Shown piece after piece: positions 27,407 to 31,981 of a stretch of 35,919 nucleotides of DNA (positions are counted from its first letter, which is position 1; each line of letters begins with the position of its first letter). The notes beneath the pieces were generated by a model. It did no database searches, was not told the origin of the DNA, and saw only the letters and a program-made list of their open reading frames with translations. Where the stretch lies: NCBI RefSeq assembly GCF_003334305.1, contig NZ_QOWS01000032.1; one strand, given 5' to 3'. Source of the DNA: Escherichia coli. GTDB taxonomy: Bacteria > Pseudomonadota > Gammaproteobacteria > Enterobacterales > Enterobacteriaceae. The position numbers were made by a program, and so were the translations under genes.

Positions 27407-28144
27407 ATGGAAAGCCCTACTCCACAGCCTGCTCCTGGTTCGGCGACCTTCATGGAAGGATGCAAAGACAGTTTACCGATTGTTATTAGTTATATTCCGG
27501 TGGCCTTTGCGTTCGGTCTGAATGCGACCCGTCTGGGATTCTCTCCTCTCGAAAGCGTTTTTTTCTCCTGCATCATTTATGCAGGCGCGAGCCAGTTCGT
27601 CATTACCGCGATGCTGGCAGCCGGGAGTAGTTTGTGGGTTGCTGCACTGACCGTCATGGCAATGGATGTTCGCCATGTGTTGTATGGCCCGTCACTGCGT
27701 AGCCGTATTATTCAGCGTCTGCAAAAATCGAAAACCGCCCTGTGGGCATTTGGCCTGACGGATGAGGTTTTTGCCGCCGCAACCGCAAAACTGGTACGCA
27801 ATAATCGCCGCTGGAGCGAGAACTGGATGATCGGCATTGCCTTCAGTTCATGGTCATCGTGGGTATTTGGTACGGTAATAGGGGCATTCTCCGGCAGCGG
27901 CTTGCTGCAAGGTTATCCCGCCGTTGAAGCTGCATTAGGTTTTATGCTTCCGGCACTCTTTATGAGTTTCCTGCTCGCCTCTTTCCAGCGCAAACAATCT
28001 CTTTGCGTTACCGCAGCGTTAGTTGGTGCCCTTGCAGGCGTAACGCTATTTTCTATTCCCGTCGCCATTCTGGCAGGCATTGTCTGTGGCTGCCTCACTG
28101 CGTTAATCCAGGCATTCTGGCAAGGAGCGCCCGATGAGCTATGA
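27407..28144 (+). CDS. ygaZ: AzlC-family branched-chain amino acid (valine) exporter, large subunit, 245 aa
   Basis: Hydrophobic AzlC-like protein ([26 protein letters not shown]...). Forms an overlapping pair with ygaH. Confidence 0.85.
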
Positions 28145-28469
28145 GGTTCTGCTGCTTGGGTTACTGGTTGGCGTGGCGAATTATTGCTTCCGCTATTTGC
28201 CGCTGCGCCTGCGTGTGGGTAATGCCCGCCCAACCAAACGTGGCGCGGTAGGTATTTTGCTCGACACCATTGGCATCGCCTCGATATGCGCTCTGCTGGT
28301 TGTCTCTACCGCACCAGAAGTGATGCACGATACACGCCGTTTCGTGCCCACGCTGGTCGGCTTCGCGGTACTGGGTGCCAGTTTCTATAAAACACGCAGC
28401 ATTATCATCCCAACACTGCTTAGTGCGCTGGCCTATGGGCTCGCCTGGAAAGTGATGGCGATTATATAA
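28134..28469 (+). CDS. ygaH: AzlD-family exporter small subunit, 111 aa
   Basis: Small hydrophobic protein whose start overlaps the ygaZ 3' end by 11 nt. Confidence 0.85.
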
Positions 28470-28559
28470 CCCACAAGAATCATTTTTCTAAAACAATACA
28501 TTTACTTTATTTGTCACTGTCGTTACTATATCGGCTGAAATTAATGAGGTCATACCCAA

Positions 28560-29090
28560 ATGGATAGTTCGTTTACGCCCATTGAACAAATGCTAAAATT
28601 TCGCGCCAGCCGCCACGAAGATTTTCCTTATCAGGAGATCCTTCTGACTCGTCTTTGCATGCACATGCAAAGCAAGCTGCTGGAGAACCGCAATAAAATG
28701 CTGAAGGCTCAGGGGATTAACGAGACGTTGTTTATGGCGTTGATTACGCTGGAGTCTCAGGAAAACCACAGTATTCAGCCTTCTGAATTAAGTTGTGCTC
28801 TTGGATCATCCCGTACCAACGCGACGCGTATTGCCGATGAACTGGAAAAACGCGGTTGGATCGAACGTCGTGAAAGCGATAACGATCGCCGCTGCCTGCA
28901 TCTGCAATTAACGGAAAAAGGTCACGAGTTTTTGCGCGAGGTTTTACCACCGCAGCATAACTGCCTGCATCAACTCTGGTCCGCGCTCAGCACAACAGAA
29001 AAAGATCAGCTCGAGCAAATCACCCGCAAATTGCTCTCCCGTCTCGACCAGATGGAACAAGACGGTGTGGTTCTCGAAGCGATGAGCTAA
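28560..29090 (+). CDS. mprA: MarR-family transcriptional repressor of emrAB, 176 aa
   Basis: MarR-type winged helix. Translation [52 protein letters not shown]... recognized as MprA/EmrR. Sits directly upstream of emrAB. Confidence 0.9.
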
Positions 29091-29137
29091 CGCGTCATCT
29101 CGCTCAAAAATCCAGATTTATAAAAGAAAAAATGACC

Positions 29138-29166
29138 GGCCAGCATCGCAACATGCTGGCCTTTTT
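29138..29166 (+). terminator. Hairpin plus T-run between mprA and emrA (attenuator or partial terminator)
   Basis: Stem GGCCAGCAT / ATGCTGGCC (29138..29146 and 29153..29161) with loop CGCAAC, followed by TTTTT at 29162..29166. Confidence 0.5.
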
Positions 29167-29216
29167 GGCAAGCAGGTCGGCTCAGCCGATGAGTTAAGAA
29201 GATCGTGGAGAACAAT

Positions 29217-30389
29217 ATGAGCGCAAATGCGGAGACTCAAACCCCGCAGCAACCGGTAAAGAAGAGCGGCAAACGTAAGCGTCTGCTCCTCCTTCTCACC
29301 TTGCTCTTTATAATTATTGCCGTAGCGATAGGGATTTATTGGTTTTTGGTACTGCGTCATTTCGAAGAAACCGATGACGCATACGTGGCAGGGAATCAGA
29401 TTCAAATTATGTCTCAGGTGTCTGGCAGCGTGACGAAAGTCTGGGCCGATAACACCGATTTTGTAAAAGAAGGCGATGTTCTGGTCACTCTCGACCCGAC
29501 AGATGCTCGCCAGGCGTTTGAAAAAGCCAAAACTGCACTGGCTTCCAGCGTTCGCCAAACCCACCAGCTGATGATTAACAGCAAACAGTTGCAGGCGAAT
29601 ATTGAGGTGCAAAAAATCGCCCTCGCGAAAGCACAAAGCGACTACAACCGCCGTGTGCCGCTGGGCAATGCCAACCTGATTGGTCGCGAAGAGCTGCAAC
29701 ACGCCCGCGACGCCGTCACCAGTGCCCAGGCGCAACTGGACGTCGCTATTCAACAATACAATGCCAATCAGGCGATGATTCTGGGGACTAAACTGGAAGA
29801 TCAGCCTGCCGTGCAACAGGCTGCCACCGAAGTACGTAACGCCTGGCTGGCGCTGGAGCGTACCCGTATTGTCAGTCCGATGACCGGTTATGTCTCCCGC
29901 CGCGCGGTACAGCCTGGGGCGCAAATTAGCCCAACGACGCCGCTGATGGCGGTCGTTCCAGCCACCAATATGTGGGTGGATGCCAACTTTAAAGAGACGC
30001 AGATTGCCAATATGCGTATCGGTCAGCCGGTCACTATCACCACGGATATTTACGGCGATGATGTGAAATACACCGGTAAAGTGGTTGGTCTGGATATGGG
30101 CACAGGTAGCGCATTCTCACTGCTTCCGGCGCAAAATGCGACCGGTAACTGGATCAAAGTCGTTCAGCGTCTACCTGTGCGTATCGAACTGGACCAGAAA
30201 CAGCTGGAGCAATACCCGCTGCGCATTGGTTTGTCCACGCTGGTGAGCGTCAATACCACTAACCGTGACGGTCAGGTACTGGCAAATAAAGTACGTTCAA
30301 CACCGGTCGCGGTAAGTACCGCGCGTGAAATCAGCCTGGCACCTGTCAATAAACTGATCGACGATATCGTAAAAGCTAACGCTGGCTAA
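29217..30389 (+). CDS. emrA: Multidrug efflux membrane-fusion protein (HlyD family), 390 aa
   Basis: Start at ATG 29217 (MSANAETQTPQQPVKKSGKRKRLLLLLTLLFIIIAV...). N-terminal transmembrane anchor and coiled-coil periplasmic domain. Confidence 0.9.
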   Translation: MSANAETQTPQQPVKKSGKRKRLLLLLTLLFIIIAVAIGIYWFLVLRHFEETDDAYVAGNQIQIMSQVSGSVTKVWADNTDFVKEGDVLVTLDPTDARQAFEKAKTALASSVRQTHQLMINSKQLQANIEVQKIALAKAQSDYNRRVPLGNANLIGREELQHARDAVTSAQAQLDVAIQQYNANQAMILGTKLEDQPAVQQAATEVRNAWLALERTRIVSPMTGYVSRRAVQPGAQISPTTPLMAVVPATNMWVDANFKETQIANMRIGQPVTITTDIYGDDVKYTGKVVGLDMGTGSAFSLLPAQNATGNWIKVVQRLPVRIELDQKQLEQYPLRIGLSTLVSVNTTNRDGQVLANKVRSTPVAVSTAREISLAPVNKLIDDIVKANAG

Positions 30390-31944: not shown

Positions 31945-31953
31945 GTACAACTA

Positions 31954-31981
31954 AGCCAGTTCATTTGAACTGGCTTTTTTC
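31954..31981. terminator. Bidirectional rho-independent terminator between convergent emrB and luxS
   Basis: Perfect 10-bp stem AGCCAGTTCA / TGAACTGGCT (31954..31963 and 31967..31976) with 3-nt loop, followed by TTTTTT on the plus strand. Confidence 0.65.

Follow-up and report, generated by a model that had tools for sequence, protein, structure and literature searches.

Background

In the rplKAJL-rpoBC operon, a partial terminator separates rplL from rpoB, and another terminator separates rpsU from dnaG; both are constitutive intrinsic terminators that set gene-dosage ratios. In these two systems a hairpin and a U-tract stand between cistrons, some polymerases stop there and others continue, the upstream genes give more mRNA, and no sensor takes part. 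Terminator hairpins with U-tracts are also found upstream of the regulated genes in the trp and his leaders, in T-box elements and in riboswitch terminators. A further class, the protective stem-loops, has been described by Dar and Sorek (2018, PMC6061677). Rho-dependent transcripts were shown there to end just 3' of stable stem-loops that block exonucleases; the stem-loop sets a precise steady-state 3' end and shields the mRNA.

The gene mprA (emrR) encodes a MarR-family repressor, MprA/EmrR, which also acts on genes for capsule, motility and microcins. Its neighbour emrA codes for the membrane fusion protein of EmrAB-TolC, an efflux pump for multiple drugs; the repressor:pump ratio therefore bears on the regulation of virulence and on drug tolerance. 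Between mprA and emrA, a terminator, its RNA 3' end and the mprA-only isoform are already known, with data published in 2018 and 2021 and an explicit statement in 2025. Chen et al. (2025, PNAS, PMC12704781) name a Rho-independent terminator between the two genes, citing the Term-seq signal of Adams et al. (2021, eLife, PMC7815308). The element studied here is the same in locus, hairpin, U-tail and 3' end, with no structural difference. In those papers the terminator served only to define the mprA transcript, and they contain no treatment of read-through, no stoichiometry and no comparison between species. A literature search for a stem-loop in emrRAB gave no relevant match.

The mprA-emrA site resembles the rplL/rpoB and rpsU/dnaG sites in having a hairpin and a U-tract between cistrons, with more mRNA from the upstream side and no sensor. 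Unlike those sites, the upstream gene here is the operon's own repressor, and leakage would set the ratio of the repressor to its target. It resembles the trp and his leaders, the T-box elements and the riboswitch terminators in that a terminator hairpin and a U-tract precede the regulated genes. Unlike all of these, it lacks a conserved leader peptide, an antiterminator pairing and an Rfam match; it works like a fixed valve and not like a switch. With the protective stem-loops it shares a stable stem-loop that sets a precise 3' end and shields the mRNA; it differs from them in that the E. coli copy carries an uninterrupted U5 and has no reported Rho region.

In the present study, we examined the element in an E. 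coli sequence and in related species, and compared it with published RNA data. The element is very probably a leaky intrinsic (Rho-independent) terminator inside the mprA-emrAB operon. As such, the site is an ordinary intra-operon terminator and belongs to textbook operon architecture. What is new is the cross-species picture of a conserved stem with a lineage-specific U-tract, the absence of an antiterminator, and a lead towards masking of the ribosome-binding site (RBS) of emrA.

Methods

The sequence analysed, here called the window, is a stretch of 35,919 nucleotides from E. coli (assembly GCF_003334305.1, contig NZ_QOWS01000032.1), and all positions refer to it unless MG1655 is named. The window comes from the E. 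coli chromosome: over 801 bases around the site it matches many E. coli chromosomes with 100% identity, and the annotation there is emrR (= mprA) and emrA. Window positions were converted to MG1655 positions by adding 2,782,210.

For the comparison between species, species-representative genomes were scanned with MprA, which gave 80 loci from the closest 80 species, in about 25 genera of Enterobacteriaceae. Alignment A1 consists of 79 mprA-emrA spacers, one per species, all from Enterobacteriaceae. As a neutral yardstick, we took the four-fold degenerate sites of the mprA genes from these species. A strict terminator-like site was defined as at least 9 Watson-Crick pairs, a loop of 3-8 nt, and T5 immediately 3' of the stem.

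Results and discussion

The mprA-emrA spacer and its hairpins

The gene order in MG1655 is ygaZ-ygaH-mprA-emrA-emrB, followed by the convergent luxS. In the window, mprA occupies 28560..29090 on the plus strand (ORF list; RefSeq annotation of the identical E. coli sequence and of K-12 b2684), with its TAA stop at 29088-29090, and emrA occupies 29217..30389 on the same strand (ORF list and annotation), with its ATG at 29217-29219. The start site of the mprA promoter is at about 28535, and that of a promoter inside ygaH is at about 28278. The spacer between the two genes is 126 nt long (29091-29216, plus strand), as the earlier note had it. It differs from that of K-12 at a single position, 29137, which has C in place of T and is one base outside the stem described below. 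The intergenic region was found at 95% identity or more in 5418 of 5426 complete E. coli genomes.

The hairpin, identified from sequence, folding and conservation, lies at 29138..29161 on the plus strand and has a perfect 9-bp stem and a 6-nt loop. Its 5' arm is GGCCAGCAT (29138-29146), its loop is CGCAAC (29147-29152), and its 3' arm is ATGCTGGCC (29153-29161). A run of five T's (29162..29166) directly abuts the stem and is followed by GGCAAG. The earlier note had described a hairpin with a CGCAAC loop followed by TTTTT, which is present exactly as given, and its distance of 50 nt from the end of T5 to the emrA start is correct. Its distance of 48 nt from the mprA stop needs a small adjustment; 47 nt intervene, and the first base of the stem is the 48th. 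Six of the nine pairs are G-C, and the isolated hairpin folds at -15.5 kcal/mol. The mean pair probability of the hairpin was about 0.98 with 70 or 460 nt of upstream RNA and with 0-134 nt of downstream RNA. A second hairpin, GGTCGGC-TCA-GCCGATG (29175..29191, plus strand; -7.8 kcal/mol), begins 8 nt after the U-tract, belongs to the emrA leader of the read-through RNA only, and is nearly invariant in 79 Enterobacteriaceae species.

In a terminator scan of a 6-kb region, the mprA-emrA hairpin ranked first among terminator-like sites. Under the strict definition, both strands of the 35.9-kb window hold two sites, this hairpin and the emrB/luxS terminator, compared with a mean of 0.01 per window over 200 dinucleotide shuffles; the mprA-emrA hairpin is far beyond chance. 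The other site, the emrB/luxS hairpin AAGCCAGTTCATTTGAACTGGCTT (31953-31976), has A's and T's on its flanks and looks bidirectional. On the minus strand, the Term-seq end of luxS at MG1655 2814159 is very strong, with over 200,000 reads (PMC7815308). On the plus strand, no 3' end after emrB is present in any of the condition sheets of Adams et al. (PMC7815308), which fits with few transcripts extending as far as the end of emrB.

Terminated and read-through transcripts

The earlier note had predicted transcript 3' ends at about 29166, and a published end lies at exactly that position. Term-seq of cells grown in LB to OD 0.4 gave a curated 3' end at MG1655 2811376 on the plus strand (Adams et al. 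2021, Supp. file 1, PMC7815308), which converts to window 29166, the last T of T5. The end has an average of 861 reads, a modest peak, and its flank reads GGCCAGCATCGCAACATGCTGGCCTTTTT up to the end and GGC beyond it (PMC7815308). The LB OD 2.0 and M63 sheets of the same file do not contain it. It was classed as 'orphan' because it is 76 nt past the mprA stop and the 'primary' class needs less than 50 bp (PMC7815308); these 76 nt (29091..29166, plus strand) form the 3'UTR of the terminated mprA transcript. The supplements of the TERMITe paper have no mprA entry, so they provide no second data set for this end.

The predicted mprA-only transcript has likewise been seen. By Northern blotting, the main mprA RNA is about 900 nt long, in place of the 3.5-kb operon RNA given in the annotation (Chen et al. 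2025, PMC12704781). The same authors mapped a new start site at ygaH codon 49 and predicted an 888-nt ygaH'-mprA transcript (PMC12704781). The end of such a transcript can be calculated: from the ygaH ATG at 28134, the addition of 144 gives 28278-28280, and the addition of a further 887 gives 29165-29167. By the same arithmetic, the terminated message from the mprA promoter is about 632 nt long.

Molecules that cross the site are documented by SMRT-Cappable-seq (2018), a method that reads capped RNAs of more than 1 kb over their full length (PMC6131387, Supplementary Data 2). Its operon list contains b2684|b2685|b2686 (mprA-emrA-emrB) from a start site at 2810745 and b2682|b2683|b2684|b2685 (ygaZ-ygaH-mprA-emrA) from a start site at 2809568, and the mprA locus is the example shown in Figure 1b of that paper (PMC6131387). 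Terminated RNAs (Term-seq and Northern) and read-through RNAs (SMRT-Cappable-seq) thus both exist and arise from the same promoter, as at a leaky terminator. The 'partial terminator' of the earlier note is borne out by the 3' end and the short main isoform on the one side and the long-read molecules on the other.

The site has the features of an intrinsic terminator, namely a GC-rich stem within the usual range of about 5-14 bp, with a short loop, an adjacent U-rich tract, and an in vivo 3' end in that tract. The distal part after T5 (GGC) is not U-rich, and the short U-tract, five U's and then GGC, may make termination only moderately efficient.

Conservation of the stem and variation of the U-tract

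In every locus long enough to tell, emrA lies 3' of mprA, and the spacer is 114-133 nt long with one exception of 189 nt. All 16 of the 16 core stem positions are 91-100% conserved in the 79 species, compared with 38-80% for the loop columns, and the loop also varies in length. At the four-fold degenerate sites of mprA, the mean majority frequency is 66%, and only 9% of the sites reach 95%. The stem is nearly invariant, and the loop drifts like neutral sites.

The sequence that follows the stem is less constant. The uninterrupted tail, TTTTTG, occurs in 8 of the 79 species: the window strain, four other Escherichia, and three Kosakonia-like genomes, Kosakonia quasisacchari, K. oryzendophytica and Enterobacter sp. 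Bisph1 (the non-Escherichia T5 loci being L076, L079 and L080). Most genera have TTTCTG (65/79), and two loci (L066 and L078) have TTTCTA, so that the U-tract is interrupted in 67 species. In the remaining four (L014, L037, L039 and L043), which are Citrobacter braakii, Klebsiella indica, Raoultella planticola and Enterobacter sp. JUb54, the tail is TGTCTG; the stem has grown to 11-13 bp and there is no U-tract. Because the stem is kept where the U-run is interrupted or lost, the hairpin is older and more constrained than the U-run. The Escherichia version would be the best terminator of the set. The deeply conserved hairpin may have a role other than, or beyond, termination, such as RNA stabilisation or processing, since most genera have UUUCUGA and four species have no U-tract.

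These tails bear on the most serious of the alternative explanations, in which the end at 29166 is a product of processing: polymerase would continue into emrA and be stopped elsewhere, through Rho or through RNase E cleavage, and 3'-5' exonucleases would trim the RNA back to a protective hairpin. Ends of this kind, just 3' of stable stem-loops, were shown for Rho-dependent transcripts by Dar and Sorek (2018, PMC6061677), and retention of the hairpin without a U-tract in 4/79 species and with an interrupted tract in 67/79 fits a role that does not need the U's. The versions of R. planticola, K. indica, C. braakii and Enterobacter sp. JUb54 resemble this protective class. The E. coli end, however, coincides with the final U of a U5 that is uninterrupted and adjoins the stem, which is the canonical position of release. 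The bicyclomycin data of Adams et al. (Supp. file 2, PMC7815308) contain no Rho-termination region at 28112xx-28115xx, a negative result that is weak for a lowly expressed operon, and Chen et al. found no terminator inside emrA that could account for the 900-nt RNA (PMC12704781). We infer that the 3' end of the E. coli transcript arises by termination rather than by trimming, and we regard processing as improbable.

Is the terminator regulated?

The earlier note had spoken of attenuation. The term holds in the sense of constitutive partial termination; it fails in the sense of a regulated attenuator, for which an alternative structure and a conserved leader ORF are missing. In a regulated attenuator, a ligand, a protein, an sRNA or a ribosome would disable the hairpin, and emrAB would be induced by read-through. 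Three observations could be read in this way. An ATG-initiated ORF of 21 codons spans both hairpins in the window strain and in K-12, the A-rich tract AAAAGAAAAAA before the hairpin resembles the (ARN)n sites of Hfq, and of three growth conditions only one gave a called Term-seq peak. On the other side, no competitive antiterminator pairing was found when 290 nt upstream and 130 nt downstream of the hairpin were searched; the best match to either arm is 6 nt with wobbles, and the hairpin remains at about 0.98 in all contexts. The 21-codon ORF (MTGQHRNMLAFLASRSAQPMS, 29132-29197) was considered as a leader peptide and rejected, for it has no Shine-Dalgarno (SD) sequence and its ATG is CTG in E. 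albertii and E. whittamii as well as in nearly all other genera; starting in the A-rich tract, it is probably not translated. An Rfam scan of 28300-29500 with E up to 10 gave two noise hits, none of them in the spacer. EmrR mediates the induction of emrAB at the promoter (Lomovskaya 1995; Xiong 2000; both as cited in PMC5654933). Regulated attenuation is even less probable than processing at this site. Because there is no competing structure, conserved leader ORF or Rfam match, the partial termination appears to be constitutive and unregulated.

The pattern of substitutions in the two hairpins is that of paired RNA. The apical pair of the terminator stem alternates between U-A, C-G, G-C and U-G, and the outer pairs swap G-C with A-U and A-U with U-A. 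The second hairpin shows a few compensatory changes, from U-A to C-G and from G-U to G-C or C-G. Taken jointly, hairpins 1 and 2 have 96.6% of cells paired, and the terminator stem alone has 95.4%, compared with 13-54% in slid registers. Compensatory (double) changes occur in five pairs over the two hairpins, three of them in the terminator stem, and none of 500 column shuffles reached the observed score. In the aligned sequences, this pattern reads as the signature of a selected RNA hairpin and not of a DNA operator. Another idea is that a dimeric regulator binds the palindrome as DNA, which could then be, for instance, a second operator of EmrR. In favour of this idea, the inverted repeat is perfect, its half-sites are highly conserved, and it precedes a regulated gene. 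The idea has hardly any chance of being correct and was dropped, since the spacer between the arms varies in sequence and in length, which a rigid dimer site would not tolerate, the pairing is kept through G-U wobbles that are relevant only in RNA, an RNA 3' end maps precisely to the palindrome, and PMC5654933 places the published EmrR site in the promoter region of the operon.

Proposed mechanism

With a leaky intrinsic terminator as the preferred reading, expression of the operon would proceed as follows. RNA polymerase would start at the mprA promoter or at the promoter inside ygaH and transcribe mprA, and the GC-rich 9-bp hairpin would form as the RNA emerges. A large proportion of the complexes, on reaching the five U's, would release the RNA at 29166. 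The released mprA-only messages, about 632 nt long when started at the mprA promoter and 888 nt when started inside ygaH, would be stable, the hairpin protecting their 3' ends. The remaining polymerases would read through and produce the 3.5-kb mprA-emrAB message; no other source of emrAB mRNA is documented. The transcription that gets to emrAB, whether derived from the promoter or from ygaZH, would be scaled by a fixed factor, and emrAB would be partly insulated from transcription entering from ygaZH.

A partial stop before emrA means that each initiation event would give more repressor message than pump message. The suggestion of the earlier note that the site decouples repressor and pump levels is a reasonable one on these grounds, and setting the repressor:pump ratio may be the physiological purpose of the site. 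A leaky terminator would also explain why the mprA-only RNA is dominant and why emrAB responds weakly to upstream transcription.

A possible larger structure over the spacer

Further conserved elements flank the hairpins. In alignment A1, the mprA 3'UTR contains two conserved boxes, CGCTCA (29101-29106, plus strand) and ATCCAGATT (29110-29118, plus strand). On the emrA side, the box AAGATCGTGGAGAA (29199..29212, plus strand) holds the emrA Shine-Dalgarno sequence GGAG (29207-29210); 9 of its 14 columns are identical in all 79 species, and the others are conserved at 97% or more. The two sides are complementary. CGCUCA (29101-29106) can pair with UGAGCG of the emrA start region (29218-29223), and UCCAGAUU (29111-29118) can pair with AGAUC-G-UGGA (29200-29209) within the SD box; RNAfold predicts both pairings.

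It is possible, and we put this forward tentatively, that the terminator hairpin is one arm of a larger conserved RNA structure that extends over the whole spacer and masks the emrA RBS. The predicted long-range helix is present in both the MFE and the centroid folds. Its probability is about 0.95 in E. coli, Salmonella, Enterobacter, Citrobacter and Kosakonia (five of the seven genera tested); in Klebsiella it is about 0.35-0.39 per register, split over two registers. Pairing between the SD and the 5' segment exceeds a probability of 0.5 in 60 of 80 sequences, compared with 20% when the segment was shuffled, and pairing between the start-codon region and this segment does so in 47 of 80, compared with 6%. 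In the alignment, 93.9% of the cells of the helix are paired, compared with 39-64% in slid registers, the species being related, and 40 of 500 shuffles reached its score. Covariation cannot confirm the helix because its 3' partner never varies, and RNAalifold did not recover it. In a TRIC-seq preprint, emrA mRNA is depleted of rRNA contacts, i.e. poorly translated; this is compatible with RBS masking and not specific to it.

If such a helix exists, it would enclose hairpins 1 and 2 on the read-through RNA and add translational damping to the partial termination. The ancestral role of hairpin 1 would then be structural or stabilising, and the change from UUUCUG to UUUUUG would be a lineage-specific improvement of the terminator.

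The mprA 3'UTR as a possible Hfq ligand

RNA 3' ends that bind Hfq have a pattern of (ARN)n plus a U-tail. The tract AAAAGAAAAAA (29122-29132, plus strand), just upstream of the hairpin, is A-rich, and its A/G-rich character is conserved across genera. With this tract, the terminator hairpin and the U-tail, the end of mprA carries sequence hints of the type of sRNA that derives from 3'UTRs, and binding of Hfq by the mprA 3'UTR is a possibility that these features raise.

The ygaZH neighbourhood and an insertion in the terminator

In all eight sequences with T5, ygaZH lies directly upstream of mprA. It also lies upstream in 24 species without T5, which have tails of the TTTCTG type. A causal association between T5 and ygaZH was considered and dropped, given these 24 species and the fact that only two lineages are involved. 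Over the whole set, ygaZ-ygaH adjoins mprA in 32 of the 79 loci, in Escherichia, many Citrobacter, Klebsiella, Raoultella, Trabulsiella and Kosakonia, at about 950-1700 bp upstream of mprA (loci L009-L080), and it is missing in Salmonella and most Enterobacter. This patchy distribution is wider than the Escherichia-only acquisition emphasised in PMC12704781.

One natural isolate has an interrupted terminator. In E. coli AF57, a blood-culture isolate from the UK (NZ_OZ546943.1; L082, 1007-2570), an IS4 element has inserted into the terminator hairpin and produced a 12-bp duplication of its target, CGCAACATGCTG, equivalent to window 29147-29158; its transposase is on the opposite strand. The insertion destroys the terminator and puts emrAB about 1.4 kb from mprA.
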